IMG/VR virus record: IMGVR_UViG_2675903278_000002
Length of the DNA: 64,000 nt
Origin: a virus
Lineage: Duplodnaviria > Heunggongvirae > Uroviricota > Caudoviricetes
Strand: one strand, 5' to 3'
Shown here: positions 8,691-54,213 of the stretch, piece after piece
How the letters are laid out: each line of letters opens with the position of its first letter
Position numbering within the stretch: the stretch's first letter is position 1
Notes under the pieces: model-generated
Told to the model about the DNA's origin: nothing
Database searches by the model: none
The model's input: the letters and a program-made list of their open reading frames with translations, nothing else
Program-made: the position numbers and the translations under genes

Positions 8691-8800
8691 AAGGACATAA
8701 GAATCATGACTAAGAGTAGAGTTTAAAATATATCTATGTATATCAGTATGTTAATGAAGAATTAAGTCATTAAGTTATCCATAAAAGACAATGTGCTCTA

Positions 8801-34825: not shown

Positions 34826-35077
34826 ATGAGCGACTGGAATATTGCAGCTAAAAGTCAGGAAGAACGGGATAAGGTTAACGTTGATCTGGCTGCCAGCGGT
34901 GTGGCGTACAAAGAGCGATTGAACATACCTGTCATAGCTGAACAGGTAGCCCGCGAGCAACCAGAGAACCTGCGCACCTATTTCATGGAACGGTTACGGC
35001 ACTACCGGCAGTTAAGCCTCCAGTTGCCAAAAGGAAGCCATCCGGTGTATCAGAACGAGGATGCACCAAGAAAATAA
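34826..35077 (+). CDS. hypothetical protein
   Basis: 83-aa ORF. Confidence 0.4.
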
Positions 35078-35453
35078 CGGCAAGATGGGGAAGACATTAA
35101 ACATGCTTAACTATCACGACAACACGCGTTCTATGCAGACAATCCGCACCAATACAGCGGTGGTCGATAGCTTTCCTGTACATACTCAAGGCCGTGAAGA
35201 TACCGTGGAAGTGCGACGCATGTTGTGTCGCCGGTCACCAGGCCACCAGCACTTCATCGTAACGTTTAAAAGCGATGTAGAGCGCGCCGAGAAAATCTCT
35301 AACTCCACATCTCTGGTTAGTCCGTTGGCGGAGGTTATTGTGCGCAACAATAAGGCGCGCTTTGTCCTTGAGGAGCATCATTCTGATTTTAATGAAAAAA
35401 TTGAGTCAAGCATTTTGCAATATATGAATGGCAAGTTCACGCCACCAATGTGA
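35061..35453 (+). CDS. hypothetical protein
   Basis: 130-aa ORF; start uncertain. Confidence 0.4.
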
Positions 35454-35514
35454 TTAGCCCCCAGCGTGGCGCGCCTGCAAACCCCGCTTTCACAAACTAT
35501 GCCTTTTCAATGTA

Positions 35515-35534
35515 TACTGTATGAATAAACAGTA
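35515..35534 (+). promoter_or_regulatory. LexA (SOS) box
   Basis: TACTGTATGAATAAACAGTA matches CTGT-N8-ACAG consensus; ~20 nt upstream of the UmuD-prime-like start. Confidence 0.75.
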
Positions 35535-35552
35535 TCATTGAGGTAAAACGCT

Positions 35553-35942
35553 ATGGGCTTCCCTTCTCCTGCGGCGGATTATGCAGAGAGCCGTATTTCT
35601 CTTGATCAGCAACTAATCAGACATCCTTCAGCGACCTACTTCATGCGGGCAGCTGATAGTCATCATCGTGAGGGAATATTACAGGGTGCATTGCTGGTGG
35701 TCGATTCCTCACTTACCCCGGTTGATGGTTCTCTGCTTGTATGCGCTCTGGATGGGGAATATCGCGTAAAAAGATACCGGAAGTACCCACGTCAGCATCT
35801 GGAGGATTTAAGAACCGGTAAGAAGGAAGCATTGCCAAAGGATGACGATGGATGCACGGGCAGCAATGCCGTGTTTGGTGTGATCACTCACATTATCAAC
35901 GACGCAAGAAGTGGCGAGTTTGATGATTGTCCCGTGATGTAG
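35553..35942 (+). CDS. UmuD-prime-like protein (S24 peptidase fold, begins at the position of processed UmuD)
   Basis: N-terminus MGFPSPAADYAE corresponds to UmuD residues just after the autocleavage site; QLIRHPSATYF, ADS and VK motifs retained. Confidence 0.8.
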   Translation: MGFPSPAADYAESRISLDQQLIRHPSATYFMRAADSHHREGILQGALLVVDSSLTPVDGSLLVCALDGEYRVKRYRKYPRQHLEDLRTGKKEALPKDDDGCTGSNAVFGVITHIINDARSGEFDDCPVM

Positions 35943-35953
35943 GAGAACTGATT

Positions 35954-35979
35954 AGGCGGTGCATTGCACCGCCTTTTTA
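35954..35979. terminator. bidirectional terminator between UmuD-prime-like gene and apbC
   Basis: AGGCGGTGC-ATT-GCACCGCCT hairpin flanked by A/T runs. Confidence 0.65.
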
Positions 35980-37080
35980 TCACACTGCGCGGAATGCGAT
36001 TTCGCCAGGTATTACTTCACCTTGCCAATACATTTGGGCAGCAACGCGATCTGCGAGGTCACGATAAATAGCCGTAAATTCGCTATCTGGACGACTAATA
36101 ACGGTTGGTGTTCCGTTATCCAGATCTTCACGAAGAGAGATATGAAGTGGCATTTGGCCTAACAACTGCGTGTTGTATTTCTCGGCCAGTTTCTGTGCGC
36201 CACCGGTGCCAAAAATTGGCTCGTGATGACCGCAGTTACTGCAAATATGCACACTCATGTTTTCGACGATACCCAGTACCGGCACTTCGACTTTTTCGAA
36301 CATCACAATGCCTTTCTTCGCATCGATCAGCGCGATGTCTTGCGGCGTAGTTACCACAACCGCACCAGTTACAGGAATGTTCTGCGCCAGCGTCAACTGA
36401 ATATCACCAGTGCCCGGCGGCATATCGAGAACGAGATAGTCCAGATCAGGCCATAGAGTTTCCTGCAACATCTGCATCAGCGCCTTGCTGGCCATCGGTC
36501 CACGCCACACCATTGCATTGTCGTCGGTGACCAGATAACCAATAGAGTTGGTTGCCAGGCCATGAGACATGATAGGTGCCATGTGAGTACCGTCCGGTGA
36601 GGTTGGACGTTGGTTTTCCGCGCCCAGCATGGTTGGAATTGATGGACCATAGATATCGGCATCCAAAATACCAACTTTCGCACCTTCAGCAGCCAACGCC
36701 AGTGCCAGATTTACCGCCGTGGAGGATTTACCTACGCCGCCCTTGCCTGAGCTGACGGCGATAATGTTCTTAACGCCATTAATGCCTGGTTGGTTTTTGA
36801 CGCGCTTAAGCGTGGCAATGTTGTACGACAGCTTCCAGTCAATAGCCTTTGCGCCAGTGATACGGAGCAGATCACCACTACATTGCTCTTTCAGGTCTTC
36901 AAAAGGCTTATTCCACACGAAAGGCATGATTAGTTCGACATGCAGTGTGTCATCCATCAACGCAACATGGTGTAACGCTTTAAGCGTAGTCAGGTTGTGT
37001 TTCAGGGTTGGGTGCTGAAAATTAGCCAGCGTACCGGCTACCATTGCTCTCAGGGCATCCGGCGATTTGGACTCGCTCAT
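35980..37080 (-). CDS. apbC: Fe-S cluster carrier ATPase ApbC/Mrp
   Basis: 366 aa; near-identical to enterobacterial Mrp as recalled (SGKGGVGKS P-loop, CSNCGH motif); divergent from metG as in E. coli. Confidence 0.9.
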   Translation of the reverse strand: MSESKSPDALRAMVAGTLANFQHPTLKHNLTTLKALHHVALMDDTLHVELIMPFVWNKPFEDLKEQCSGDLLRITGAKAIDWKLSYNIATLKRVKNQPGINGVKNIIAVSSGKGGVGKSSTAVNLALALAAEGAKVGILDADIYGPSIPTMLGAENQRPTSPDGTHMAPIMSHGLATNSIGYLVTDDNAMVWRGPMASKALMQMLQETLWPDLDYLVLDMPPGTGDIQLTLAQNIPVTGAVVVTTPQDIALIDAKKGIVMFEKVEVPVLGIVENMSVHICSNCGHHEPIFGTGGAQKLAEKYNTQLLGQMPLHISLREDLDNGTPTVISRPDSEFTAIYRDLADRVAAQMYWQGEVIPGEIAFRAV

Positions 37081-37236
37081 CCCGTCTCCTTTATTTTAAT
37101 TTGCGCAATTGTCGCCTTGTAGTGTACTCCAGCTACGACATTTAATCATTTATGAGAAATGCTGTTATCACATGGCAGACATAAGGCCATTTTGTTACTA
37201 TCAAGCCCCTTTTCACTACAAAGAAGTAATGCCTAC

Positions 37237-39271
37237 TATGACCCAAGTCGCGAAGAAAATTCTGGTGACGTGCGCGCTGCCGTACGCTAACGGCTCAATC
37301 CACCTCGGCCATATGCTGGAGCACATCCAGGCTGATGTCTGGGTTCGTTACCAGCGAATGCGCGGCCACGAGGTTAATTTCATCTGTGCCGACGATGCCC
37401 ACGGTACGCCGATCATGCTGAAAGCACAGCAGCTTGGTATCACACCGGAGCAGATGATTGGCGAAATGAGTCAGGAACACCAGACTGATTTCGCAGGCTT
37501 TAACATCAGCTATGACAACTATCACTCGACGCACAGCGAAGAGAACCGTCAGTTGTCTGAGCTTATCTATACTCGCCTGAAAGAGAACGGTTTTATTAAA
37601 AACCGCACTATCTCTCAGTTGTACGACCCGGAAAAAGGCATGTTCCTGCCGGATCGTTTTGTAAAAGGCACCTGCCCGAAATGTAAAGCGCCAGATCAAT
37701 ACGGCGATAACTGTGAAGTCTGCGGCGCAACATATAGCCCGACTGAATTGATCGAGCCGAAATCGGTGGTTTCTGGCGCTACCCCGGTAATGCGTGATTC
37801 CGAACACTTCTTCTTTGATCTGCCTTCTTTCAGCGAAATGTTGCAGGCATGGACCCGCAGCGGCGCGTTGCAGGAGCAGGTGGCGAACAAAATGCAGGAA
37901 TGGTTTGAATCCGGCCTGCAACAGTGGGATATCTCCCGAGATGCGCCTTACTTCGGTTTTGAAATTCCGAACGCGCCGGGCAAATATTTCTACGTCTGGC
38001 TGGACGCGCCGATTGGCTACATGGGTTCCTTCAAGAATCTGTGCGACAAGCGCGGCGATACCACCAGCTTCGATGAATACTGGAAGAAAGACTCCACCGC
38101 CGAGCTGTACCACTTCATCGGTAAAGATATTGTTTACTTCCACAGCCTGTTCTGGCCTGCCATGCTGGAAGGCAGCAACTTCCGCAAGCCGACCAACCTG
38201 TTTGTTCACGGCTATGTGACGGTGAACGGCGCGAAGATGTCCAAGTCTCGCGGCACCTTTATTAAAGCCAGCACCTGGCTGAATCATTTTGACGCCGACA
38301 GCCTGCGTTACTACTACACTGCGAAACTCTCTTCGCGCATTGATGATATCGATCTCAACCTGGAGGATTTCGTTCAGCGCGTGAATGCCGATATCGTGAA
38401 CAAAGTGGTTAACCTGGCCTCCCGTAATGCAGGCTTTATCAACAAGCGTTTTGACGGCGTGCTGGCAAGCGAACTGGCTGACCCGCAACTGTACAAAACC
38501 TTTACTGATGCCGCTGAAGTGATTGGCGAAGCATGGGAAAGCCGCGAATTTGGTAAAGCTATCCGTGAAATCATGGCATTGGCTGACCTGGCTAACCGCT
38601 ATGTCGATGAACAGGCTCCGTGGGTGGTGGCGAAGCAGGAAGGACGCGATGCCGATCTGCAGGCGATTTGCTCTATGGGCATTAACCTGTTCCGCGTGCT
38701 GATGACGTACCTGAAGCCGGTACTGCCGAAACTGACTGAACGTGCAGAAGCATTCCTGAATACAGAACTGACCTGGGATGGTATCCAGCAACCGCTGCTG
38801 GGCCATAAAGTAAATCCGTTCAAGGCACTGTATAACCGCATCGATATGAAGCAGGTTGAAGCACTGGTGGAAGCATCCAAAGAAGAAGTGAAAGCCACAG
38901 CCGCACCGGTAACTGGCCCACTGGCTGACGACCCGATTCAGGAAACTATCACCTTTGACGACTTCGCCAAAGTTGACCTGCGCGTGGCGCTGATTGAAAA
39001 CGCAGAGTTTGTAGAAGGTTCTGACAAACTGCTTCGCCTGACGCTGGATCTCGGTGGTGAAAAGCGTAATGTCTTCTCAGGCATCCGTTCCGCTTATCCA
39101 GATCCACAGGCACTGATTGGTCGTCACACCATTATGGTGGCTAACCTGGCACCACGTAAAATGCGCTTCGGTATCTCTGAAGGCATGGTGATGGCTGCTG
39201 GCCCCGGCGGGAAAGATATCTTCCTGTTAAGCCCGGATGCTGGTGCTAAACCTGGCCACCAGGTTAAGTAA
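37237..39271 (+). CDS. metG: methionyl-tRNA synthetase
   Basis: 677 aa from [10 protein letters not shown]; HIGH-type [12 protein letters not shown] and KMSKS motifs; near-identical to E. coli MetG as recalled; large antisense ORF 37295..38806 rejected. Confidence 0.95.
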
Positions 39272-40676: not shown

Positions 40677-40795
40677 CGGTTGCAACTTATTGATAATGGC
40701 GGTCACAATTTGATTCTTTTCTATAAGAACCCGTTGATCGCCACTACTCCCCTCCCATACCAGCAATCACATCATTAAATATCAATAGGTTATGG

Positions 40796-41560
40796 TTGTT
40801 TATACAAATAAGAAAACAACTAAATAACAGATCAACGAAACGTCAACGCTTTCACCCGATTTGGTCTAAAAAATTGACGTTTTCACACATCACTTCTTAT
40901 ACCCGTAACTCTACGCAGCAGACATCGCCACAGCGTCCAATTTTCACCACAGACGACCCAACACACTACCAACAAAAACACACGCTCAAAATCGCTCCCG
41001 TTGCGTTACACAACCATATAAACAACTTATTTTCAGGCATAACAAAACAACTAAATAACACACATGCCATTTCCAAAAACAACCAACCTCTTTATGGCAG
41101 GCTACCGAAAAGACCCACCTCTTCTCCCCAGGCTACCGGACAACCAACCTAACTTTCACAGGCAATCCGAAAACATTCATACGCGCGATACCCACGACAC
41201 GCCATTACCCAAACAGCGAAGAAACACCAGAATCACTGAACCCCCAACGAAGCCTGTAACCGCAAGGCTTCTCTCAATCCCAAAAGACACGAAACAGAAC
41301 AATCACGGGAAACGCCATTACCCAACACACGAATAACTACAAAAGCCCTTCACGCACTCCAGACAAACAACTCAAACACAATAACGAAAGGAATCGCCCA
41401 CCTGCCATTACTCCATACACGGAGAAGAACAATCACCAAAACGACGAGAACACCCCATAGAAGAACCACCGCAAAACGAACGAAACCACATACACCGACA
41501 GAGAGAACAACACACCCAATTCACCAACAGAATTAGTCGCCGTATAGAACGTTCTGGAAG
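40796..41560. other. ~750-bp strongly strand-asymmetric C/A-rich, G-poor non-coding tract
   Basis: top strand dominated by A and C with few G; only low-complexity ORFs; internal ~30-bp repeats CAGGC(T/A)ACCG... at ~41097, 41130, 41159. Confidence 0.6.
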
Positions 41561-41747
41561 GAGTGAGTGTTAACGTCCATAGAGAGGTTGAGACAGATAA
41601 AACACGAATAAAACACAACATGTATAGCGAAGAAGCCAGGTATGTATAAGTGGGGAGAGAAGGAGGGGTGTCGCCTCCTTTTTCGTATTTATTCAACTCC
41701 TGATTTTACCCCCCGTAACACCCCTACGGTCAGCCTTCGGTCCATAC

Positions 41748-41890
41748 AGGGAAAAGGCTGCATCCCGCTACAGAAACGGCTGGGTTGCCTTCGGGGAACG
41801 GCTGGAGGTTTTCAGGGAAACGGTCGAGTTGCCTGTGTGGATTTCGGGAAAAGGCTCGATGCCGGTTCAGGAACGGTGGCGTACCGGTAT
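41748..41890. repeat. six direct repeats GG(G)AAA(A)CGGCT at ~21-22 bp periodicity
   Basis: units at ~41750, 41772, 41794, 41815, 41846, 41869; related array at 45775-45890. Confidence 0.65.
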
Positions 41891-42259
41891 AGCGTGAGGG
41901 AGAGTTGCGGCTGTCCACCTGTAATGTGCGGGAAGAAGAGAGGCGCTCACGTGCAGGCGAACTTACTTACCGCTGGATTCCCTCTGAATGCCCAGCTACA
42001 GCGTAATTGTGCCAGACAGTCAGCGGGTCACAATCGATTTCAGTAGGTTTTCGGGGAGAAGAAAATTCTGCCCACCAGCCCTGCGGCGCGCGTAGAGCAG
42101 AATATCGTAAATACTGGTTCCGTGTCGTTCCCGGATACTCACTACCCAGCCTGGCTTTCCCGACATAAAATCCTTTTCCGCCTTTGTCTTATTGCGATAA
42201 TAACACCAACAAGTAAACAACATGTTTAGACGTTATATAAACGAAGTGAGGATGAAGAG

Positions 42260-42478
42260 ATGATTAAGATGCCTGTGACGGTTGAGGTGTGGGGCGTGGA
42301 TTCCCTGGCTGAGTGTCTGGATGCAGTGGGGCCGGAGTTGTACCGCAAGTTGTGGTCGTTCGTCCCGGCAGAAGGGGAATCGCCCAAAGGGAAGGATATC
42401 TGGCACCTGCTGAGTGAAGATGAAAAGCGGGAGCTGGTGGACGCGGTACACAGCGAGTTCCCGGGCGACGAAGATTAA
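42260..42478 (+). CDS. hypothetical small acidic protein (cassette)
   Basis: 72 aa; motif A at 42211-42228; terminator hairpin GGCCACCAGCACGGTGGC after stop. Confidence 0.5.
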   Translation: MIKMPVTVEVWGVDSLAECLDAVGPELYRKLWSFVPAEGESPKGKDIWHLLSEDEKRELVDAVHSEFPGDED

Positions 42479-42616
42479 GAGTGAGGCCACCAGCACGGTG
42501 GCTTTTGTCGCTATTAACCTCCGGGCAGCGCAGCACCGTAACGATATACTTTGTGGCCGTTTTCTTACTGGTATTGTTTACGCAATTCAGAAAACAACAT
42601 GTTTAAGGATTGCGTT

Positions 42617-42946
42617 ATGTTTGCAAATATCGACATCAACCAAATCAAGAAAATGACTCAAAAAGAGTTTGACCAGTTTTATGAGTTAGAAGGTTGGTCT
42701 TCCACTCTGATCAATTCGCGGTGGGTGCTTGAGCTGATGACTCGTGATGACGCACCTGCTTTGATGATTTGCGACATGGGTGAAGATGCTGACTTTATGG
42801 ATATGAGCGAATTTTGTGTGGACACATACAACCGCAGCCAGAAGTACTACTTCACATGCGATAGCGAAAATGACGTGATTTCTAAGGTCTATCTTCACCT
42901 CGTCCAGCATTGGGACGTTCAGGAGTTTCTTGAAGTATTCGAGTAA
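42617..42946 (+). CDS. hypothetical protein (cassette)
   Basis: 109 aa from ATG 42617; motif A at 42588-42606; hairpin after stop. Confidence 0.5.
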   Translation: MFANIDINQIKKMTQKEFDQFYELEGWSSTLINSRWVLELMTRDDAPALMICDMGEDADFMDMSEFCVDTYNRSQKYYFTCDSENDVISKVYLHLVQHWDVQEFLEVFE

Positions 42947-43099
42947 CCCCAACCAAAGCCAGCATTGCTGGCTTAATTTCTCTATAGCCGCAGGGAAGAA
43001 CCTGCATATCGCTCATGCACCTGATCAATATGCTTTGTAGCCGTTTTCTTACTGGTATTATTTACGCCATTGAGAAAACAAGTTGTTTACGGAGTTGTG

Positions 43100-43411
43100 A
43101 TGAAAAAATCATTGGTTCTTGGTCTGGACAAAGACCAGAAGAGAAAAGAGAAGCCTGCGCTGGTTGCTCAATTAACTTTGCTGGACATCGTTGCCAATGG
43201 AACCTCTATTCGTCTGTTCCGTGAAACAGCGGTGTCTTTCGATAAAAACACCTTTACTCGTTATGTAATGAATGTTCGTCGCCAGCGTGGAAAAGGCTGG
43301 GTGGCATTTCAAAGAATGTGGCCGGAACATCAGCTCGAACTGGCTTTGATGGAAGTTAACCGCGTGGCCCAGCAAGAGATTCAGAGAGCATCAGTGATGG
43401 CAATAGCCTGA
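43100..43411 (+). CDS. hypothetical protein (cassette)
   Basis: 103 aa from ATG 43100; motif A at 43072-43090; upstream ~65 bp homologous to the 42541-42606 region. Confidence 0.5.
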   Translation: MKKSLVLGLDKDQKRKEKPALVAQLTLLDIVANGTSIRLFRETAVSFDKNTFTRYVMNVRRQRGKGWVAFQRMWPEHQLELALMEVNRVAQQEIQRASVMAIA

Positions 43412-43445
43412 TAATGTGCAAGTGGTAATTAGTCGACAGTACGAC

Positions 43446-43474
43446 AGCCCCGCCATCCTTACGGGGCTTTTTTG
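43446..43474 (+). terminator. Rho-independent terminator
   Basis: AGCCCCG-CCATCCTTA-CGGGGCT then TTTTT. Confidence 0.65.
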
Positions 43475-43537
43475 TATTGTAAGTACATACTTATGATCAT
43501 AGAATATAAAAATAACCAAAACACTACGGAGAGTGAA

Positions 43538-43933
43538 ATGACCGTTAAACGCGAAAAACTGACAGTTGATGTTTACTATGCCTCTGAAACCGCCGAAGGT
43601 AAGAATGTGGCAAAAATCACCGTTGTTACGTACAACACCGAAACTGGTGCCGAAGTCCAGGCCAGTACGATCGTGCGTAAAGGTGATGCCTCCGACGGCG
43701 AGTACGCGACTCAATACCAGTCCATTCTCGATGCAACTGACCCGCTGCTGCTGAAAATCGAGAACTACTTCCGCCAGGTTGATGAAGAGGTGTTTGAAAC
43801 CATGATGAATATGGTTAACACCGTATTCGCCTCCAACCTGAATACCAACACTACCTGGATTGGTCAGTACGGCCTGCGCATTACCTCTGGCATTCCTGCC
43901 GACACCTTAATCCCTGAAAGCGTATTCGCTTAA
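43538..43933 (+). CDS. hypothetical protein (cassette)
   Basis: 131 aa from ATG 43538; hairpin AAATGGCGCG-TAAA-CCGCGCCATTT after stop. Confidence 0.5.
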   Translation: MTVKREKLTVDVYYASETAEGKNVAKITVVTYNTETGAEVQASTIVRKGDASDGEYATQYQSILDATDPLLLKIENYFRQVDEEVFETMMNMVNTVFASNLNTNTTWIGQYGLRITSGIPADTLIPESVFA

Positions 43934-44050
43934 TCCTCTTTAAATGGCGCGTAAACCGCGCCATTTTCTTATGCCCGATAACAATTTGTTTTCTGCCTTA
44001 TCTGATTTGTGAAAATGATTTCACTGAAGCAACTTAATAAGGAAACCATC

Positions 44051-44425
44051 ATGGGACTTGATATCTATATCGAGACACAGCCTAAAAACGATCTGAATAA
44101 CGAGGCATCCAGAAAGCAGGTTGCTTACTTCCGTAAGTTCAATGCGCTCGTTGGGTGGATGGAGCGCAACGTAGGTGAAGTCGAAAATTGTGAGCTTTTA
44201 GAATTAACGATGAATGACATTTGTTTTCTGAAGGCTCATTTGATGCACATAAACGAAAGTAATTGCGAAGAGTACTTGCCTACCCGGGAAGGTTTTTTCT
44301 TCGGCAGTCAGGAGTACGATGAAGGTTACTGGCATGATGTGGGGCAGTTGAAAGAGCTTGTGGAAGATCTGATTAAGAACCACGACTTTCACAATAACAG
44401 ACTGACCTTCTGCGCCTGGTGGTAA
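44051..44425 (+). CDS. hypothetical protein (cassette)
   Basis: 124 aa from ATG 44051; motif A variant at ~43981-43993. Confidence 0.5.
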   Translation: MGLDIYIETQPKNDLNNEASRKQVAYFRKFNALVGWMERNVGEVENCELLELTMNDICFLKAHLMHINESNCEEYLPTREGFFFGSQEYDEGYWHDVGQLKELVEDLIKNHDFHNNRLTFCAWW

Positions 44426-44427
44426 AT

Positions 44428-44571
44428 ATGGGCGATTTCAAGAAACGCCTGAAGGAAAGAGCCGAGATGGTCAGAAAGCAAAACGCCTCTTCTGTCATCA
44501 GATACGCAAGGCAGTTTAGTCGCAACAACAAATCAGTTGAGGAAAAGATCCTTAGCGTAATCGGTCGATAA
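44428..44571 (+). CDS. hypothetical small basic protein (47 aa)
   Basis: not in ORF track (below 60 aa); ATG 2 nt after upstream stop; followed by conserved terminator hairpin at ~44577-44610. Confidence 0.35.
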   Translation: MGDFKKRLKERAEMVRKQNASSVIRYARQFSRNNKSVEEKILSVIGR

Positions 44572-44760
44572 TTATTAAGGCCACCAGCATTGGTGGTCTT
44601 AAATGACTTTTAATAACCGAAGGTTAGTTTGAAACCTGGCTATCAACTTCCAGAACCTTTCTTGTGTATTCAGCCTGTATTAACTTCTTTTATGCCTTAT
44701 CTACACTGCGATAATTACACCAACAAGAAAACAACATGTTTACGCAGTGAGGATATGCTC

Positions 44761-45042
44761 ATGACTGATTTCACCATTACCCCTAAAGCACAAAATGTAT
44801 TTCTTGAATCATGGCTGGACTTGCCGGAAACAGAACAGCAAGAAATGGATCATGTGGATTATGACGAGCAGGTAAGCACGCGATTCTTCCACTTTGAGGG
44901 ATGCGTTTACGACATTGCTGACTTCATGCGAGATGACCGCTTCCCTGAATGGCACGCCAGTTATCCACTAAACGCCTTTGCCATGCTGATGATCCGTGTG
45001 GATGATTCAGGGGATACCATCGACATCGGTCTGCTCCACTAA
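44761..45042 (+). CDS. hypothetical acidic protein (cassette)
   Basis: 93 aa from ATG 44761 (RBS GAGGA); motif A at 44726-44743; hairpin GGCCACCAATGCTGGTGGCC after stop. Confidence 0.5.
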   Translation: MTDFTITPKAQNVFLESWLDLPETEQQEMDHVDYDEQVSTRFFHFEGCVYDIADFMRDDRFPEWHASYPLNAFAMLMIRVDDSGDTIDIGLLH

Positions 45043-45079
45043 AGATTAAGGCCACCAATGCTGGTGGCCTTAAATGACC

Positions 45080-45180
45080 ATCCTGTTTCCCGCAGGCTAA
45101 AAACACCAACCTCTTACCTCCAGGCAACCGACAAACCCACCTGTTCCCGTCCGGCTACCGCAACTTTCCACTTTGACGCC
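45080..45180. repeat. C/A-rich tract with three ~30-bp CAGGC(T/A)A(C/A)CG repeats (short copy of the 40796-41560 tract)
   Basis: units at ~45093, 45121, 45152 resembling those at 41097-41170. Confidence 0.55.
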
Positions 45181-45246
45181 TTATTCGTACAACGATAATT
45201 AACACCAACAAGAAAACAATTTGTTATTTACGATAAGGAATTAATC

Positions 45247-45729
45247 ATGAATTTTATCGCTACTGTAAACGCACCCGCACATGGCAATATCGCTGTAACG
45301 TTCTCTGACATTGAAAAACGAGTACTTGGTGCATGGCGCGACAATGAGACGGTAGAACTGTCAGCACAAGAAAAATGCATTATTGCACGCGACATCATTG
45401 GCAATCGTCGTTACTCGCGGGTATTTGAGAAAGCGTATGTGGTAAATTCTGGGTTCGGAACGTTCGTCTTTCCGGTGCGCTCCGGGCGATTCTGCCAGTC
45501 CAAGCTGATTGAGTTCGCTACGCAGATTTCTGTCTGGATTAAAACTCAATCGTCGTTCAAATTTTCCGACGATGAAGCAGTATCGCAGGGGATGCGGATC
45601 GCCAACAATGCGATTAAATGCAAAAACATTACGTATACCGCTGGCGTTGATACATGGAAACTGTTTTGCGCTAACTTTATGCTGAATGTATACGCAAGCA
45701 ACCGCATCCACATCCTTGATGGCGTGTAA
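45247..45729 (+). CDS. hypothetical protein
   Basis: 160-aa ORF; motif A at 45210-45227; terminator hairpin ~45735-45757. Confidence 0.5.
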   Translation: MNFIATVNAPAHGNIAVTFSDIEKRVLGAWRDNETVELSAQEKCIIARDIIGNRRYSRVFEKAYVVNSGFGTFVFPVRSGRFCQSKLIEFATQISVWIKTQSSFKFSDDEAVSQGMRIANNAIKCKNITYTAGVDTWKLFCANFMLNVYASNRIHILDGV

Positions 45730-45774
45730 CTGAGAAGAGGGCCAGAAACGGCCCTTTCTCTATAGCCACCAGCT

Positions 45775-45890
45775 GCCGCAGGGAAATTTTCAGAAACGGC
45801 GAGGAACGTATTCATAAGCCGACGGGAAACGGCCAGGATTTTTTCGGGAAACGGCTGCATTCGCCTTTATGTAGAAAAAAACATCGGGAA
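45775..45890. repeat. second array of GGGAAACGGC-type direct repeats
   Basis: units at ~45778, 45791, 45822, 45845, 45884, same family as 41748-41890. Confidence 0.6.
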
Positions 45891-46346
45891 GCTGGTGGAA
45901 TCCAACCAGCGGTTGTCGGACAGGCGAGCGGGGAAAATTATGATGACTTTCGTCGCCTGAGACATCCAGATTTCTTTCGTAGCATAATCACATACGTGAT
46001 TAAGTGGTGTGATTATGTGAAAAATCACGCGCACATAATACGCGAGCGGATACGGAACAAAACAAAATGCCGATCCGCGCCGACAAATAAACGCGGATCA
46101 CATAGCAAGAATAAAAGCCAATGATTAGCCATACGTTATAGCGCAATATAACGCATTTTAAGCGCGTTAATGTGCTAAGTAATGGGTATGTACTGGTAAG
46201 GATATAAAAGCGCGTCTATGGCGTTATTTTGGCGCTTATTTTTATGTTGTTGGAGTGAGTTAAAGACAATAAAAAACGCGCCATCATTGGCGCGCTATGG
46301 TGGGAGTATTGGAAACGAAAAAAGCGCCCATAGTGGGCGCTCGATT

Positions 46347-46850: not shown

Positions 46851-47501
46851 TTACGCTTTGAAAGCATCAGCTAAATAATTGTAGAAATCATTTTTAATGA
46901 AGCGATATTGCTGAGTACCAGCTTTCGCGCTCCCAGCTCCTTTGACTTTTTCAACAAGTCCAAGACGTTCGCAAAGATTGATCAACTGGTTGGCTTGAGT
47001 ATAGCCAGCGTCCAATTTAATTTCGCACGCTTTTTTCGCTTCATTCATTAAATCGAAAACAGCGCCATTGGTGAACGTGTCGATCTCGTCGTTAATCATA
47101 TCGATTAATGCGAATACACGAGATCCGGACATATCAGCGACGGAATAAACACACTTTCCAGCTTTAATGGATTTAACCAGATAAACCAGTTTTTCCAGAG
47201 AATAACTATTAGTCATTGCATCACGGAAAAATACTTCTGGCGCTTGTTTGCTTGCTTTGATCGCATAGTAGAAAACAGAGCACAATTTTTCGTCTTCTAC
47301 AGCGTTTACAACGTTGTTGATGAAGTAAGCAAGTTTAGTGGTTGCAGCTTGCATATTTGCTTTGTCTGCTTTGGTGTGCGTGCCATTTTTATAATGTTCG
47401 TTATATGTTTGAGTTGCCAGATCTGCTTTTTCGCGCAGTTCATCGGATACAATGGAAGCAGCTTCAATGATGGATTTTTTAGAAATGATAATGTTAGCCA
47501 T
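46851..47501 (-). CDS. hypothetical protein (low-GC island)
   Basis: 216 aa; RBS AAGGAAAAATTATCATG; possible helix-turn-helix-like C-terminal segment. Confidence 0.5.
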   Translation of the reverse strand: MANIIISKKSIIEAASIVSDELREKADLATQTYNEHYKNGTHTKADKANMQAATTKLAYFINNVVNAVEDEKLCSVFYYAIKASKQAPEVFFRDAMTNSYSLEKLVYLVKSIKAGKCVYSVADMSGSRVFALIDMINDEIDTFTNGAVFDLMNEAKKACEIKLDAGYTQANQLINLCERLGLVEKVKGAGSAKAGTQQYRFIKNDFYNYLADAFKA

Positions 47502-48096: not shown

Positions 48097-48621
48097 TCAA
48101 AAAGGCAAAATTCGTTCAACCCAATCGAACAAAACAACTATTTTTCTACCGTTCTCGACACGTAGTGTAACCTGACAAGCATCTGCGCCTGCTGACACCC
48201 CCTCAATTTCACGGCCATCCGCCATGTACACCCTTATAGATTTGTTTGCTTTGTAGGCTTGGTTGCAAATTGCAAAAAAATCGCGGCGTGATGGCCGATT
48301 ATCGACATAATCAGGGTGAACTGTTAGTCGACCTTTGAAATCGTGAGCGATACTGTCAACCACACCTGATTCAATTGTACTAATGCGTTCAAGTGGGAGC
48401 CTTATACGATTTTCTTTGTCAAAAGGGGCTGGGCAAAGGTCAACTTTGTTACGAGATGGCATGAGGCCATAAACGTACATGCAAAACGCCTGGCCATCTT
48501 CGAGAGTGACCCTTACAGGAATTTGTTCTCTGCGCCAGAACATCAGTAGTTTTTCAACGTTAGTGTAATCTCGCGGCCAGAGTTCAGCTTGGATACCGTA
48601 GGTAATATCTTTGGTTGTCAT
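48097..48621 (-). CDS. hypothetical protein
   Basis: 174 aa from internal Met chosen to avoid overlap with upstream lipoprotein gene; start uncertain. Confidence 0.4.
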   Translation of the reverse strand: MTTKDITYGIQAELWPRDYTNVEKLLMFWRREQIPVRVTLEDGQAFCMYVYGLMPSRNKVDLCPAPFDKENRIRLPLERISTIESGVVDSIAHDFKGRLTVHPDYVDNRPSRRDFFAICNQAYKANKSIRVYMADGREIEGVSAGADACQVTLRVENGRKIVVLFDWVERILPF

Positions 48622-48625
48622 ATCA

Positions 48626-49048
48626 TCACAGAGTTGTTGGCAGAATGTCGATGTCACCAGAATTGCTGGTAAACACCCTGAACGCTTTTGTGTCTCCATT
48701 CTTCAGAGTCGTTTCTCGCTCTTGACGAGCGGGGTTTAGAGCACATAAACCTGCACCTTCAAGAGATGCACCCACAATTAATTCTCCGGCATTTAAATGG
48801 AAAGTCGCTTTTTCGCCTGTAGCCAGTTTTGCGACAGTTTCGCCGTTGATGAAAATGGAAGCATCACATCCAGCTCCTACAAAACCTGTGTCTCTCATTA
48901 CCACCAACGTAGCTGGCGCTGCGCTTTGATACTTGAACACTTTGGCCTGCGGTGCTGGTTTGGCGTCATGGATTGATATTGGGTGTGATTGGCACGCGGC
49001 AAGCATCAACACTGGTAACGTTAGTAGAGGGAGAAGCGAGTATTTCAT
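48626..49048 (-). CDS. hypothetical lipoprotein
   Basis: signal peptide with lipobox (LMLAAC) from Met at 49048; 140 aa. Confidence 0.5.
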   Translation of the reverse strand: MKYSLLPLLTLPVLMLAACQSHPISIHDAKPAPQAKVFKYQSAAPATLVVMRDTGFVGAGCDASIFINGETVAKLATGEKATFHLNAGELIVGASLEGAGLCALNPARQERETTLKNGDTKAFRVFTSNSGDIDILPTTL

Positions 49049-49116: not shown

Positions 49117-49395
49117 TTATTTTAATCTGCTTAATAGCGTTTCGAGATCTTCCTTTGTCATATTAGAGTTCTCATAGATACGCATGATTTTCTCACGAGT
49201 CTTAGCGGAAGCCCCGACAGAAGATATAACCTTGTCAAAGTCGGCCATTGTCAATTGTTCCAGAATGGTATTTATGACTTCAGCCTTAGACATTTTGATA
49301 TTTTTTTCTTTTAGTTTCACTTGAAACTTTCCAAGTTTGTCATTGGCCTTATCAGACAATGCTACCTGACAGTAAGTTGTTTTCTTTTCACTCAT
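49117..49395 (-). CDS. hypothetical protein
   Basis: 92-aa ORF directly downstream of the helicase gene on the minus strand. Confidence 0.45.
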   Translation of the reverse strand: MSEKKTTYCQVALSDKANDKLGKFQVKLKEKNIKMSKAEVINTILEQLTMADFDKVISSVGASAKTREKIMRIYENSNMTKEDLETLLSRLK

Positions 49396-49397
49396 AA

Positions 49398-50957
49398 CTA
49401 ATCTCGTTTCAGAACTCCAAAATCGAATGCTCCATCAATAGGCAATACACCTTCTGCAAAGCCAGGTGTGGTGTCGATGATGTGTTTTCGCTCATAAGAG
49501 TGAGACAACAGGTATTTGTTGCTAATGTCAATGAAATCAGTGATAAAACACACGTTTGCCTGATTTTTTTTGGCTCGTAAGCCACGACCGACACGCTGCC
49601 TCATTTCAACTTCTGCTTTTCCACCACCAGCCAGAATGACCGCACCAACGCTTGGCACATCAACACCGACATCCAGAATAGTCGAGCCTATTAAAACATC
49701 TATTTCGCCAGACGCTAAACTGTTCAGCTTTGCTTGCCTTGTCGCCTGGTTCGATTCCCCATAGATGAAGTCAACTTTAAGACCTGACTCCTTCATCATC
49801 TCCATCAGGATTTGCCCGTGGCGTTTAAGACGAACCAGAGTCATGCAATTGAGAGAATGTTGCTTATAGAGCAATGCTTCGCGCACAATGGCCTCGTTAC
49901 GTCCCAAATTATACACGATCCCCAACTGATAAGCCTTTTGGTAGGCTGTGCTCATACCTACTCTAAAATTAAGGTGTTTGTTGGCAAGTTCCGCCTTGAT
50001 TCTGACCTCGTCTGGCTTGTAAGCAACTTTATGATAAAGGAAGTACGGTTTTGCCAGAATGCCTCGATCAATCAGGTACTTTTCTGTGACTTTAATTTCA
50101 ATTCGACCGGCCACAGCCATCAGACGCATGTTGGCTTCTGTAGAATCCTTCATGAACGGCGTGGCCGTAAGCGCCAGACGATAGTCTGCGTTCACACATA
50201 ATCTGGCAATGTCATAGAAATTAGAGCCTGAAGACTCATGCGCTTCTTCCAGAATAAGCAGAGACACACTTGAAAGGAAGCGTTTCACCAACTCCCGACG
50301 TTTGAGGTGGTAGCTTTTCTTATCTGGTGTTGCATCGCGTGGTGGTTCTTCGAGGAAACTTGCAAGAGTTTGAACTGTAGCGACGTTGATATGTCGTGAT
50401 ACCTGGAACTCACCCGAGCCAATGACTCCAACCTTTTGGTCTTTTAACCACGGTTCGCCATTTTCGGCGCGGTAGTCGATGGATCTCTGGAAGTTTTCGG
50501 CCATTTGAAACATCAGAACAGAGCGGGTTGTTAAAAATAATGTCATTCGACCGATACGTGCAGCTGCTTTGCAGGCAACGTTAGATTTCCCGCCACCAGT
50601 AGCGATCTGCGCAATCATCATTCCCTCTCGAACCAGTGTTTCCACAGTCTGATCCTGATACGCATAATCAGGATTGTATGGGAATGGGTTAACCGCCGGA
50701 TTTGGTTTACCAAGCGCCGGGGCTTTGTCTTTGCGGATATGAACACATTTGATGCCCGCCTTGTTCAAGTTCGCCGCTACAGGCTTGGCAAAGCCAGCAG
50801 GGAACGAGTTTTTACTCCAGTTGAACATCGTGCTTGTGCCCTTCCAGTCGCCAGTCTCGACTTCGTAGCTCAACATTTGCTGCACCAGTTGCTTTACCTT
50901 GTCATCTGCGCCAGAAATAAGCGCATTTACTGCGTTAGATACAATCCGAACAGTCAT
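49398..50957 (-). CDS. superfamily 2 DNA helicase (UvsW-like by context)
   Basis: Walker A ATGGGKS, DEAH-type box LILEEAH, helicase C motif QRVGRGLR; 519 aa. Confidence 0.7.
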   Translation of the reverse strand: MTVRIVSNAVNALISGADDKVKQLVQQMLSYEVETGDWKGTSTMFNWSKNSFPAGFAKPVAANLNKAGIKCVHIRKDKAPALGKPNPAVNPFPYNPDYAYQDQTVETLVREGMMIAQIATGGGKSNVACKAAARIGRMTLFLTTRSVLMFQMAENFQRSIDYRAENGEPWLKDQKVGVIGSGEFQVSRHINVATVQTLASFLEEPPRDATPDKKSYHLKRRELVKRFLSSVSLLILEEAHESSGSNFYDIARLCVNADYRLALTATPFMKDSTEANMRLMAVAGRIEIKVTEKYLIDRGILAKPYFLYHKVAYKPDEVRIKAELANKHLNFRVGMSTAYQKAYQLGIVYNLGRNEAIVREALLYKQHSLNCMTLVRLKRHGQILMEMMKESGLKVDFIYGESNQATRQAKLNSLASGEIDVLIGSTILDVGVDVPSVGAVILAGGGKAEVEMRQRVGRGLRAKKNQANVCFITDFIDISNKYLLSHSYERKHIIDTTPGFAEGVLPIDGAFDFGVLKRD

Positions 50958-51039
50958 AAACCTCTTTCCTTAGTGCCTTTTGTATGTTATTTGGCTATTA
51001 TAATAAGTAAGTGATTACTTAGTGGATTGTAGCAATAAA

Positions 51040-51720
51040 ATGGATGTAAAAATCACGATTTTGCAGGTTGATGTTGCCAACCTTCGCCCGAATACCTGGA
51101 ACACCAATTCGGTTGGTGCGCAGAATTTTGAAAAACTGAAAGGTTCTATCGAAAAATTGGGCTTTTTTAAGCCAATTTTGGCTCGTGAACTTGAAGATGG
51201 ATTTTTTGAAATCCTCGGCGGTGAACATCGCTGGCGTGCTGCTATTGAGCAAGGAATTTCAACGGTTCCGGTGCTTTCTGTGGGCAAAATTAGCGATGTC
51301 GTAGCTAAACAGATGTCACTGGTGGACAACGAGCGATACGGTGAAGACGACCAAATCGCATTGCAACGCTTCATTGAAGAAATTCAGTCAGAACTTGACT
51401 ATCAACTGTCTGAAATCGCCCCGTATGACGACGAAATCTCGATGGTTTTAGCAAAAGAGGCGGCAATCGACCTTGAAGCACTGGAGGCGTTGTCTCGTGG
51501 TAGTGATGAGCCTGTCGATACCGACAAACGAGAGAAAACCGAACGTGTGGGTGCGGAACATCAGACCATGCGCTTCAAAGTAACTTTCGATGCGTCAGAT
51601 CGTGTTGCAGAAACCATAAAAAACATCATCAAAGAGCAGGCTATTAACACCGGTAATGAAATGGAGAACGCTGGTGAGGCTCTGGTGTGGCTGGTCGACT
51701 ACTACAAGGAGCGTATGTAA
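51040..51720 (+). CDS. ParB/Srx N-terminal-domain protein 1
   Basis: ParB-box-like ILGGEHRWRAA; acidic C-terminus; ORF track start 51022 overlaps a palindromic motif, ATG 51040 preferred. Confidence 0.65.
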   Translation: MDVKITILQVDVANLRPNTWNTNSVGAQNFEKLKGSIEKLGFFKPILARELEDGFFEILGGEHRWRAAIEQGISTVPVLSVGKISDVVAKQMSLVDNERYGEDDQIALQRFIEEIQSELDYQLSEIAPYDDEISMVLAKEAAIDLEALEALSRGSDEPVDTDKREKTERVGAEHQTMRFKVTFDASDRVAETIKNIIKEQAINTGNEMENAGEALVWLVDYYKERM

Positions 51721-52388
51721 TGACCAAAAAGTTTGAAATCGTATATCGCGACCCGGCAGATCTTATTCCCTATGAGATGAATGCCAAAAAGCATGATGAA
51801 CAGCAGATCAGAGATTTGGCCGCAGCCATTAAAAAGCGCGGATTTGACCAGCCAATTACGGTCGATAAGAACGACGTAATTATTACTGGCCACGGCCGCC
51901 GTGAGGCTGCAATTTTTGCTGGACTTGAGCGCGTACCGGTTATTGTTCGTGATGATCTGAGTGATGACGAGGTTCGTGCGAAGCGCCTTGAAGATAACCG
52001 ACTTGCCAGCATTGATTACGATGCAATTAAGCTACAGAAAGAGCTTGAGTCGCTTGTTCTGGACGATATTGAGGTTTTCGGCTTTGAAGAGCGTGAGTTG
52101 AATGTTCTCGTTGGCAGTATGACAGAAGAAATGGACACCGACTCGCTAGTTATCGATCTTGGCGAAGAAACTAAACGACAGAAGGATGAACACACCGAGA
52201 TCAGTCGTGAAGTTGCAGCGGAAGAAGTACGTGTTGTCGACGTATTGGGCTTTAAAACGCTCCCTGCTGGCTCTGCCATTGTTGTTGGTGATTTGCTTGC
52301 CCATATGGAAGAAATGACGGGAGAAAGCGGGGTAGACGCATTTGTGGCATATGCGGAGAAGATCTCTTCCGGGGAGATGGCTGCATGA
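51720..52388 (+). CDS. ParB/Srx N-terminal-domain protein 2
   Basis: ITGHGRREAA motif; ATG overlaps upstream stop (TAATG). Confidence 0.65.
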   Translation: MTKKFEIVYRDPADLIPYEMNAKKHDEQQIRDLAAAIKKRGFDQPITVDKNDVIITGHGRREAAIFAGLERVPVIVRDDLSDDEVRAKRLEDNRLASIDYDAIKLQKELESLVLDDIEVFGFEERELNVLVGSMTEEMDTDSLVIDLGEETKRQKDEHTEISREVAAEEVRVVDVLGFKTLPAGSAIVVGDLLAHMEEMTGESGVDAFVAYAEKISSGEMAA

Positions 52389-53050
52389 GCAAATACATCA
52401 TCAACGTATCGTTTCAGACACGCGTAAATAAAACCACGCGCACGTTGGAAATCGCTGAGTCGTTCGGGCTTGGCCTGGACGAAAAAGAGTGGACGCTTTA
52501 CGACAATCTGGAGCTGGAAGTGAAGCAGGGCGATGTGGTGTACATCACCGGCCAATCCGGTTCCGGCAAATCCGTTGTGCTGCGCGAGTTGCAACGACAG
52601 ATGAAGGATGAAGGGCTGTCTGTAGCCTCCATCGATGATTTTACCTTCGATAATGAGGTTAACGTCATCGATCAGTTGGGCAAAACGACCAGTGATGCGC
52701 TTGGGTTGTTATCTATGGCTGGTCTGAACGATGCATATCTGTTTGTTCGCAAGCCTTCTGAAATGTCAGACGGCCAGAAATATCGTCTCAAGATTGCCAA
52801 ACTGATTGAGTCAGGCGCTAAAGTATGGGCTGCTGACGAGTTCGGCGCTGTTCTCGACCGTGTAACCGCTCAGGTTGTGGCGTCTAACCTCCAGCGTGCC
52901 GCTCGAAAGGTTGGTGCGACGGTAATGGTGGCGACGACTCACGAAGACCTGAAGAACGCGCTGCGCCCTGATATGCAGATCACCAAGCACTACAAAGAAC
53001 GCGTGAAGGTGGAATATCACAATGGTAGTCATGATGAGGTCCATTCATGA
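52385..53050 (+). CDS. standalone ABC-type ATPase
   Basis: Walker A GQSGSGKS, ABC signature-like LSDGQKYRL, Walker B VWAADEFG, H-loop ATTHE; 221 aa, no transmembrane partner nearby. Confidence 0.55.
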   Translation: MSKYIINVSFQTRVNKTTRTLEIAESFGLGLDEKEWTLYDNLELEVKQGDVVYITGQSGSGKSVVLRELQRQMKDEGLSVASIDDFTFDNEVNVIDQLGKTTSDALGLLSMAGLNDAYLFVRKPSEMSDGQKYRLKIAKLIESGAKVWAADEFGAVLDRVTAQVVASNLQRAARKVGATVMVATTHEDLKNALRPDMQITKHYKERVKVEYHNGSHDEVHS

Positions 53051-53937
53051 CGGACATCATCATTAAACGCTACCGCCCTGAAGAGTTTCCGCGTCATCTG
53101 GACTTTCTGGAGCGAATGACTGTTACAAAGGGAACTGTAGAGGACTGGCACGCTCTTAAGTCGCTTCACTACAAAACAGACGGCAAACCTTTCGCGCCAA
53201 CTTACTATCGCTGCGAACTTGATGACCGTCTGGTGGGCGTCGTGGTTATGGCTTACCCGAAACTACTGTTGGCACCTCGCCACCGCATGTTTCCTAAGTT
53301 GAAACCAACCACTAATACCACCGTGGCTAACCAGTACTGGGGTCGGTACGTGAATAACAACTTTGCGGTGATCAGTCGCTCAGTTGTGGATACTCAGTAT
53401 CGTGGCGTAGGCGTCTCTTATAGAATGATTAACCTGGTTAGCAGGATGCATGACCGGCCAATCATTGAGATCCAGTCCTCGATGAGCAAATACAATCCCT
53501 TCGCCATGAAAGCAGGGTTTAAGTTCATCCGCCCTGAGCGACCGAAGAGCTATGAAAGTGCACTGCGTGTGTTCCAGCGCCATTTCCGCTCCGACCCGGG
53601 TGATAACGAGGCGATCGTCAAAGAGTTGTTCGCTATGAGCGAGTCTCGTCGTCGCCGTGCGCTGCGCGATTTGGTGGCGGACTACCATAAGAACAGTTCC
53701 CTGGCAAAAGCTGGGCGGAATCGTGGCACGACGATTCAGGACATTGCCGACAGTCTGGTGGACGAGGCCAGCATTGTGAAGCTGCTCAAGGACATTCACA
53801 ACCTGAGCTTTACGTCTCCGTTGTATGGTGTGTACCGAAACCCTGACTTTGGCCGTCGACTGCCTGACACGCTGCCACTGCTGGCATTCGACAAACAACC
53901 TTTGGATAAACCGTTAGAAATTGCTTTACCGGCATAA
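53047..53937 (+). CDS. hypothetical protein with GNAT acetyltransferase-like core
   Basis: GNAT motif-A-like QYRGVGVSYRMI; 296 aa. Confidence 0.35.
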   Translation: MTDIIIKRYRPEEFPRHLDFLERMTVTKGTVEDWHALKSLHYKTDGKPFAPTYYRCELDDRLVGVVVMAYPKLLLAPRHRMFPKLKPTTNTTVANQYWGRYVNNNFAVISRSVVDTQYRGVGVSYRMINLVSRMHDRPIIEIQSSMSKYNPFAMKAGFKFIRPERPKSYESALRVFQRHFRSDPGDNEAIVKELFAMSESRRRRALRDLVADYHKNSSLAKAGRNRGTTIQDIADSLVDEASIVKLLKDIHNLSFTSPLYGVYRNPDFGRRLPDTLPLLAFDKQPLDKPLEIALPA

Positions 53938-53946
53938 GGATTTGCC

Positions 53947-54213
53947 ATGACGTTAACCGACAAACAAAAGGACATCATCAAAACGCTCAATCTCGGTTAT
54001 GAGCGAGGTCATCTACTTGACCTGGACGAATTGCTTGAAGTTTTGCCGTACAAGACAACCAAGCAAAGTATCCAGTTCTCAATTCGCGCTCTGATAAAAA
54101 AGGGGCTGGTGGAGAAAGGGCATACGCGCCAACGCAGTGACAATCGCTATCACCGCCGGACTCTTGGGTTAACCACTTTAGGTCGAGCCAAAGCGAAGTT
54201 ACTGGTGATGTAA
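53947..54213 (+). CDS. small putative winged-helix DNA-binding protein
   Basis: 88 aa, basic, helix-turn-helix-like central segment. Confidence 0.35.
   Translation: MTLTDKQKDIIKTLNLGYERGHLLDLDELLEVLPYKTTKQSIQFSIRALIKKGLVEKGHTRQRSDNRYHRRTLGLTTLGRAKAKLLVM

Follow-up and report, generated by a model that had tools for sequence, protein, structure and literature searches.

Phased direct repeats that act as protein sites are, as such, well known from several replication, partition and regulatory systems. In the phage-plasmid P4, the type I iterons of ori and crr are reportedly bound by the alpha primase-helicase; each site is required in cis, and the alpha protein is able to link the two. Theta plasmids (F incB/incC, P1 oriR/incA, R6K, RK2) carry direct repeats at ~22-bp spacing, the classical iteron spacing of F, R6K, and RK2, with two arrays flanking a gene block. 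The phage SPP1 has two direct-repeat arrays, oriL and oriR, with AT-richer DNA nearby and a single phage-encoded protein, G38P, that reads them, and the centromeres of type Ib/II partition systems (pB171 parC1/parC2, R1 parC, TP228 parH, pSM19035 omega) are short direct repeats in non-coding DNA. Here, we describe two arrays of a short word (array 1 and array 2; Table 1) in a 64,000-nucleotide stretch of the virus record IMGVR_UViG_2675903278_000002, hereafter the window, and compare them with these systems. With a probability of roughly 85%, in our estimate, the arrays serve in cis as DNA sites of a single sequence-specific binding protein, which would read the asymmetric word GGGAAACGGC and, at both sites, would line up multiple copies of itself along roughly the same face of the helix.

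The comparison with each described system yields both likenesses and differences. As in P4, a phage-plasmid carries two clusters of one short asymmetric word several kb apart; however, the P4 word (TGTTCACC) occurs in both orientations and is bound by a primase-helicase fusion, whereas here the primase and helicase are separate genes at least 40 kb away with no sign of a DNA-reading domain. The theta-plasmid iterons share the ~22-bp direct repeats in two arrays around a gene block, and the candidate binder proposed below is, like the Rep proteins, a predicted winged-helix protein. In contrast to those iterons, only 10 of every 22 bp are conserved here, Pfam recognizes no Rep-family gene between or beside the arrays, and the DnaA-box consensus is missing. 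Moreover, the real RepA iterons of this element lie elsewhere (8446-8522 and 8794-8899, reported by Tandem Repeats Finder) and have a different 21-bp unit, TCTATAGTGGTTATTCTGCTC, as an earlier note on this DNA had claimed. One SPP1 origin lies inside the organizer gene, and no homology to G38P or the lambda O family was detected here. The geometry of a 10-bp word plus a 12-bp spacer is identical to that of the LytTR operators (AgrA, ComE, YpdB; 9-10-bp repeats with 12-13-bp spacers), but LytTR sites are promoter pairs, whereas the present words form arrays of three to six in terminator-flanked gaps; no LytTR domain was found in ~37 proteins of the element, a subset of its complement. Full-text literature searches for the word and for an SSU5 origin or iterons returned no description of the arrays. 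What is new is a 10-bp word with free spacers, the placement of two arrays around a cassette cluster and away from rep and par, and the invariance of the word across a phage-plasmid family.

Escherichia phage Cyrano, which is the pLF82 phage-plasmid, matches the 4.8 kb around the arrays at 97% identity, and non-mobilizable IncFIB Escherichia coli plasmids of ~110 kb match at up to 99.5%; weaker matches in Klebsiella, Enterobacter, Salmonella (pHCM2), Citrobacter, Cronobacter, and Yersinia (pMT1) bring the total to 755 plasmid records. By these matches, the window is therefore assigned to an E. coli SSU5/pHCM2-type phage-plasmid, an element of ~112 kb.

The earlier note had counted six repeats in the first array and five related ones in the second, ~4 kb away. 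Array 1 indeed holds six copies of the 10-nt word, and the distance between the arrays is 4.03 kb. Array 2 holds three good copies, the outer two being degenerate, such that the count of five stands only loosely. The word is asymmetric and every copy lies on the forward strand. Allowing at most one mismatch, GGGAAACGGC occurs 8 times in the window against 3.2 expected, and six of the eight matches fall inside the arrays. A 13-nt weight matrix gives 15 matches of at least 11 bits in the window against ~6 in shuffles; ten of the 15 are at the two sites on one strand (six in array 1, three in array 2, and one in a terminator loop 48 nt upstream of array 2), with leave-one-out scores of 8.7-18.9 bits for the nine array copies. 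With the same matrix, no further cluster of the word was found in the window or in the rest of NZ_AP027572, a closely related plasmid used to cover the element outside the window (record positions 50001-53308, ~3.3 kb, excluded). This clustering, in both the decamer counts and the weight matrix, is far beyond expectation for a chance cluster. Next to the word, the upstream half (TTTC) shows weak conservation (0.2-0.4 bits per position). The arrays escape Tandem Repeats Finder, since their 12-nt spacers bear no relation to each other.

Separate blastn searches place array 1 in 713 records and array 2 in 769, with equal genus profiles apart from Yersinia, where the 55 pMT1 records keep array 2 and lack array 1. 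Array 1 is kept in Salmonella, Enterobacter, Citrobacter, Cronobacter, Klebsiella, Buttiauxella, a divergent Klebsiella lineage, a JGI contig, and Pectobacterium, and array 2 in the lineages with array 1 and additionally in Yersinia pestis pMT1. When eight or nine lineages are aligned, conservation is higher in the columns of the word than in those of the spacers (0.83 vs 0.64; 0.95 vs 0.82). Further, in four divergent lineages, namely Klebsiella (L099, NZ_AP024176), the JGI contig (L226), Buttiauxella (L101), and the Pectobacterium plasmid Drgb1 (L227), blastn homology around the arrays is gone and the neighboring proteins are 30-66% identical, yet several copies of the word persist in one orientation at both syntenic positions. 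Among 2.9 million viral contigs, two copies 12-14 nt apart occur only in SSU5-like elements, plus a few chance or coding repeats, and by this measure the array is specific to the SSU5-like family. The centre-to-centre distances in 58 loci from IMG/VR are 22 (150 times), 21 or 23 (12), 31 (19), 33 or 34 (56), and 44 (once), these counts not being independent events; the independent changes are a 9-nt deletion that turns 31 into 22 (Klebsiella, Cronobacter), a 1-nt difference (33 vs 34), and a lost copy that leaves 44. The spacings are close to two, three, or four helical turns.

One annotation, that of Cyrano, draws a 134-residue open reading frame (ORF) across array 1 (CYRAN_104, 41642-42046). 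This ORF is the one argument for regarding the repeats as a non-functional remnant of degenerate coding sequence or as a chance cluster, and we give that view a negligible probability. PGAP annotates no gene over array 1 in any plasmid record compared, the ORF spans a terminator and matches nothing in Pfam or PHROG, and relatives carry indels of 1, 9, and 10 nt in it. Hence, we reject the coding-sequence reading of this interval; the word is conserved and the rest is not, and the degenerate coding sequence that would have undone the earlier note's proposal was not found.

A role at the level of RNA is also very improbable, with GGGAAAC words, transcribed by read-through or during the lytic cycle, binding CsrA through GGA, or binding a FljA-like protein, as a sponge or processing signal. 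The copies are co-oriented with the upstream forward-strand transcription, GGA occurs in all of them except the two CAGAAACGGC variants (41771, 45791), a genuine member of the FljA family (PF03614) has its gene 2.2 kb away, and array 2 shares a 10-nt identity, AGCCGACGGG, with the 5' untranslated region of fliC. Against this, no promoter is recognized between terminator and array at either site. In the transcriptome of the LF82/Cyrano lysogen (PMC9928086, supplementary table), in which the prophage background is 9.8 normalized reads, the array 1 interval (CYRAN_104) has 14, or ~1.5 times background. Folds of both strands of both arrays are no better than shuffles (z from -1.7 to +0.4), no fold is conserved, and Rfam at E values up to 1 matches neither array, yielding just an irrelevant weak Hrs1 match at 46268. 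The arrays accordingly lack the own promoter, RNA level, fold, and Rfam match of a CsrB-like sponge or other structured non-coding RNA. We also rejected a mimic of the fliC leader, the target of FljA: in a comparison with the E. coli fliC leader, the identity was reached in 14 of 500 shuffles, array 1 has none, and the array 2 identity falls in positions that differ in other lineages. Lastly, multiples of ~11 are a property of duplex DNA, and the conserved ACGGC is unneeded by CsrA. As an observation in its own right, the FljA-family protein (48097-48699, reverse strand; phase-1 flagellin repressor, E 2.5e-84) is full-length and present in all relatives, and the phage-plasmid might shut off host flagellin translation with it.

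Taken together, a conserved asymmetric word, free spacer sequence with constrained length, one orientation, and an insulated, non-coding position without RNA structure argue for arrayed sites for one protein, in line with the arrayed protein-binding sites proposed in the earlier note.

As for what such sites do, we tentatively favor, at well short of even odds, iteron-like lytic-phase sites of the phage core, most likely the region of its lytic replication origin. We lean this way for four reasons. First, the arrays stay unchanged while the plasmid replicon type changes among lineages (IncFIB, rep_cluster_763, 2469, 973; RepA 50% identical). Second, the element records annotate a replisome (helicase, primase, Pol III alpha, ligase, RNase HI), yet neither a lytic initiator nor a lytic origin is among the genes annotated in the records compared. 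Third, the lysogen does not express the DNA-binding candidate closest to the arrays. Fourth, the 22-bp spacing is that of classical iterons; the arrays display the run of at least three direct repeats at ~20-23 bp seen in origins of that kind, 22 being dominant in the 58 loci. Under this proposal, array 2 together with the adjoining AT-richer, repeat-rich ~300-310 bp would constitute the lytic origin region, and array 1 would be a remote partner of it, by analogy with P4 ori/crr or SPP1 oriL/oriR. The AT-richer stretch next to array 2 possibly belongs to the same cis-acting locus; the GC content of these 310 bp is 0.40, compared with 0.46 for the window and 0.55-0.58 for the array 1 region.

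The protein proposed to assemble first on array 2, and from there to bridge across to array 1, is a 216-residue candidate with a predicted C-terminal winged-helix domain (Table 1). Its AlphaFold2 model has a mean confidence (pLDDT) of 85, with an alpha-beta-alpha-alpha-beta-beta C-terminal domain whose best Foldseek matches are the origin-binding winged helix of Orc1/Cdc6, MukE, and the replication terminator protein (probabilities 0.9-0.99, E values of at least 0.04). The putative recognition helix, YTQANQL, is invariant in all nine aligned homologs, down to 47% identity, and reads FTQTNQA in Pectobacterium. Genus by genus, this gene and array 2 are found together, Yersinia pMT1 included, and its silence in the LF82 lysogen is what a lytic function would lead one to expect. 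Pfam and PHROG scans of the array neighbors detected no domain of the Rep, lambda O, or DnaD type. The 160-residue protein encoded beside array 2 was considered and rejected: its model (pLDDT 85) has no fold match at E below 0.1 and no DNA-binding topology.

Several observations weigh against a phage-encoded reader of phased sites at a lytic origin. No direct computational link leads from any protein to the word. The fold matches of the winged-helix domain are weak. Array 1 is without an AT-rich neighbor, and near the arrays the DnaA box is represented by no consensus and by one match with 1 mismatch per region. A Serratia contig has the winged-helix gene and no arrays in the 16 kb seen, and this gene sits in an operon with lysogeny-expressed accessory genes, not beside the replisome genes. 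The two most divergent lineages space their words irregularly (27-28, 7, 28, and 34-37 in L099/L104; also Pectobacterium), and phasing is therefore favored, not obligatory. Further, no lineage combines a diverged candidate protein with a changed word, and as the word is unchanged in every lineage, co-variation singles out no candidate; a conserved host factor is a possible binder, which would explain the invariance of the word alongside candidate proteins that are 39-50% identical at least as well. The GC-skew profile tracks gene orientation only and carries no origin signal.

The earlier note had named the ParB-like proteins (51022-52388) as candidate binders, which our analysis does not bear out. 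They match ParB/Spo0J/Noc in the N-terminal domain only, with a box II motif that reads GGEHRWRAA, and after about residue 106 the alignment is acidic, gapped, and without a helix-turn-helix; we rejected the pair on these grounds. Their genes resemble late genes in the lysogen, with CYRAN_119 at 4.99 (the detection floor) and CYRAN_120 at 9.5, both at floor or background levels, unlike RepA at 133; on that basis we do not count them among the plasmid-partition proteins, and no feature identifies them as readers of sequence. The word itself is asymmetric, in place of a palindromic parS of ~16 bp.

A different partition system offers a better candidate. Outside the window, the element encodes a ParA-like ATPase and a ribbon-helix-helix (RHH) partner, and the arrays might be the centromere of this type Ib system, with RHH dimers coating the repeats and ParA segregating the plasmid prophage; we consider this possible but rather unlikely. 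The pair are core genes, found in ~725-736 PLSDB records at 80% identity or more with the genus profile of array 1, and both they and array 1 are missing from pMT1. Both are expressed in the lysogen (ParA, 50; RHH, 89). The RHH partner is 90-94% identical across genera, with its basic tail RPQGRPT and beta-strand SRTMS invariant even at 50% identity. Two arrays of short direct repeats in non-coding DNA recall pB171 parC1/parC2 and R1 parC, no repeat array lies beside the ParA/RHH operon in the 3 kb searched, and dispersed centromeres far from the par genes are known in N15. However, the arrays are not beside the par operon but ~38-42 kb from it on the circle, whereas type Ib/II centromeres normally flank the operon; the unit is longer than most RHH sites; the par promoter holds a different conserved palindrome, AAAACAAGTTGTTT, which is present at 13 window sites and would be the more obvious RHH operator or omega-like site; and array 2 is kept in pMT1 without the ParA/RHH system. 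No computed result separates the centromere from the lytic origin, or either of them from the remaining readings. Apart from this, CYRAN_29, a 119-residue product labeled a putative RelE/ParE toxin in Cyrano, combines a basic RPQGRPTRGK tail with an SRTMSLEDE strand and two helices, and looks from these features like the RHH centromere-binding partner of the adjacent type Ib ParA, not a RelE/ParE toxin.

Table 1. Coordinates of the two arrays and associated features (window positions unless stated otherwise)
Feature	Position	Strand	Description
Array 1	41749..41877	+	six copies of a 10-nt word, core GGGAAACGGC; spacing 22,22,22,31,22
Array 1 copies	41749; 41771; 41793; 41815; 41846; 41868	+	GGGAAAAGGC; CAGAAACGGC; GGGGAACGGC; GGGAAACGGT; GGGAAAAGGC; CAGGAACGGT
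Array 2	45781..45894	+	three strong copies, two degenerate outer copies
Array 2 strong copies	45791; 45824; 45846	+	CAGAAACGGC; GGGAAACGGC; GGGAAACGGC; spacing 33,22
Array 2 degenerate copies	45781; 45885	+	GGGAAATTTT; CGGGAAGCTG
Intrinsic terminator	41657..41684	+	10-bp stem and T run; closes the C/A-rich region, 65 nt upstream of array 1
Terminator-like hairpin	45739..45761	+	GGGCC-AGAAAC-GGCCC then TTTCTCT; behind the 160-aa gene and 30 nt ahead of array 2
Variable cluster of 7-8 small genes	42180..45729	+	own promoter, 13-nt palindrome, and own terminator per gene; bracketed by the arrays
13-nt palindrome sites	5265, 16996, 27218, 27947, 39356, 39407, 41020, 42215, 42592, 43076, 44729, 54331, 54356		
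Inverted Chi pair bracketing array 2	45766..45898		45766 CCACCAGC; 45891 GCTGGTGG; retained in relatives
AT-richer stretch	45961..46270		GC 0.40; adjoins array 2; ATCAC/GTGAT heptads, TATAACGC repeats
216-aa protein	46851..47501	-	C-terminal winged helix (predicted); candidate binder, encoded 1 kb from array 2
ParA-like ATPase (222 aa) and RHH partner (117 aa)	NZ_AP027572 34514-35541 (outside the window)		CYRAN_28/29; candidate binder pair

The immediate surroundings of the arrays bring further readings into view. Both arrays lie 30-65 nt downstream of an intrinsic-terminator-like hairpin. The hairpin before array 2 was found by reading the sequence and is not listed by the terminator scan; its loop and 3' arm fortuitously resemble the word, and relatives carry an equivalent hairpin, GGGGCTGGAAACGCCCC-TTTCTTTT, before array 2. 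Array 2 is set between convergent operons, with this terminator before it and three to four reverse-strand terminators on its far side. The earlier note had each array follow a C/A-rich tract and took the combination as a duplicated module. This is true of array 1, which follows a 750-nt tract with the terminator in between. For array 2 it fails: a short C/A stretch (45090-45200) lies ~580 nt upstream with the 160-residue gene in between, and the proposed duplication finds no support, as only array 1 follows such a tract.

Between the arrays, the bracketed interval spans 1.5-4.2 kb in relatives, and its gene content differs by lineage (4-10 genes). The products of this region (42180-45760) belong to PHROGs 6757, 7645, 5125, 2473, 7971, 1845, and 1641, with function unassigned. 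Since gene content varies between lineages, the cluster is, judged by its sequence, a cassette-like hotspot. This setting suggests transcriptional boundary or regulatory sites, at which a regulator (the winged-helix protein, CYRAN_117, or another) would bind both arrays and either loop out the cluster or serve as a roadblock that insulates it from adjacent transcription or silences it. The arrays mark the precise ends of a variable cluster whose small genes have individual promoters, a terminator precedes each array, the 750-nt C-rich, G-poor tract upstream suits Rho loading, winged-helix and RHH proteins are usually regulators, and CYRAN_117 is strongly expressed in the lysogen. Even so, we deem this explanation unlikely. 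No recognizable promoter overlaps the arrays, array 1 ending ~310 nt before the next one and array 2 lying in a convergent gap; the cluster promoters have their own, different operator; and three to six phased copies kept across distant genera are unneeded for a roadblock.

In a more speculative extension, to which we assign little probability, the arrays would be protein-bound boundaries of a cassette locus, paired by one protein, encoded by the element or a conserved host factor, into an insulated loop within which accessory genes, possibly anti-defense in function, would be swapped by Chi-stimulated homologous recombination. This idea arises because the arrays stand exactly at the ends of the only hypervariable block, are backed by terminators, and are accompanied by 7 Chi sites in 3.9 kb and by an inverted Chi pair. 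We know of no description of such a device, combining a chromatin-like insulator with gene exchange, in phages.

Packaging, with the arrays as sites for the small terminase TerS or an accessory protein in a pac/cos region, is scarcely credible, even though arrays of short repeats are common targets of small terminases (lambda cosB, SPP1 pacL/pacR). TerL is the most conserved protein of the element, at 91% between lineages, and the inverted Chi pair would suit a region exposed to RecBCD. TerS, in contrast, is only 58% conserved, and 8.5-12.7 kb separate the arrays from the terS-like gene downstream of them (54409-55041); pac/cos sites normally fall within terS or beside it. Array 2 is also kept by pMT1, which we take to be no longer a functional phage.

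Several further features of this region deserve mention. The C/A-rich, G/T-poor tract (40790-41530, forward strand; A.40, C.32, G.12, T.16) runs for ~750 nt without a credible gene and ends in a G-rich stretch and the terminator just before array 1. Its layout is kept in L099 (1240-2090), in L104 (5470-6310), and even in Pectobacterium (L227 11250-10640). Its RNA is at the detection floor in the LF82 lysogen, and the tract would be ideally suited as a rut region for Rho loading, or else as an unstructured non-coding RNA. The 13-nt palindrome, AAACAAGTTGTTT / AAACAACATGTTT, has 13 sites in the window against 0.8 expected. Most copies separate the ribosome-binding site of a small gene from a promoter-like extended -10. 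Others precede the terS-like gene or, beyond the window, fall within the promoter of the parA-like operon. The palindrome resembles an operator that serves the whole element, much as the C1 operators are dispersed over P1. The 19 Chi sites of the window include 7 within 3.9 kb (42072-45898), a local concentration. Several are built into terminator stems (GGCCACCAGCATTGGTGG), and the terminators at 44575 and 45046 are near-identical inverted copies, so that their Chi sites face opposite ways. In the convergent gap (45980-46346), reverse-strand terminator hairpins at 46342-46322, 46296-46275, 46100-46071, and 46044-46028 may mark small reverse-strand RNAs; ten 8-nt CTAAAYNG units stand in tandem in the gap after array 2 of the divergent relative L099.

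Farther from the arrays, CYRAN_117 (49117-49395, reverse strand) is a 92-residue basic protein with an RHH-like N-terminus; at 114 normalized reads, it is among the highest Cyrano genes in the lysogen and may be an unrecognized regulator. A conserved block (51022-54213, forward strand), silent in the lysogen, lies directly upstream of the terminase genes. It holds two ParB_N-only proteins together with an ABC/SMC-like ATPase (87% conserved between lineages), a 296-residue basic protein with a GNAT-like motif (80%), and an 88-residue basic protein that appears winged-helix-like by eye (78%), and it may be a packaging- or late-gene-associated module. On the other side, window positions 35000-38000 carry a full-length methionyl-tRNA synthetase gene and an ApbC/Mrp-like P-loop ATPase (MinD in the Cyrano annotation), the latter adjoining an S24 LexA-like peptidase gene, an unusual cargo for a phage-plasmid.

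The phage-plasmids of the SSU5/pHCM2/pMT1 type are among the commonest large extrachromosomal elements of clinical Enterobacterales, and the literature records that elements of the SSU5 family also spread resistance genes. The arrays are carried by more than 700 PLSDB records, including Salmonella Typhi pHCM2, and array 2 by Y. pestis pMT1. In the annotations and literature searched, there is no description of a lytic origin for this family or of the centromere of its ParA/RHH system, and the arrays are the best sequence-level candidate so far for the one or the other. They are thus a target for incompatibility-based curing and for the mapping of replication after induction. Should the binder prove to be a host factor, it would represent a dependency common to the whole family.

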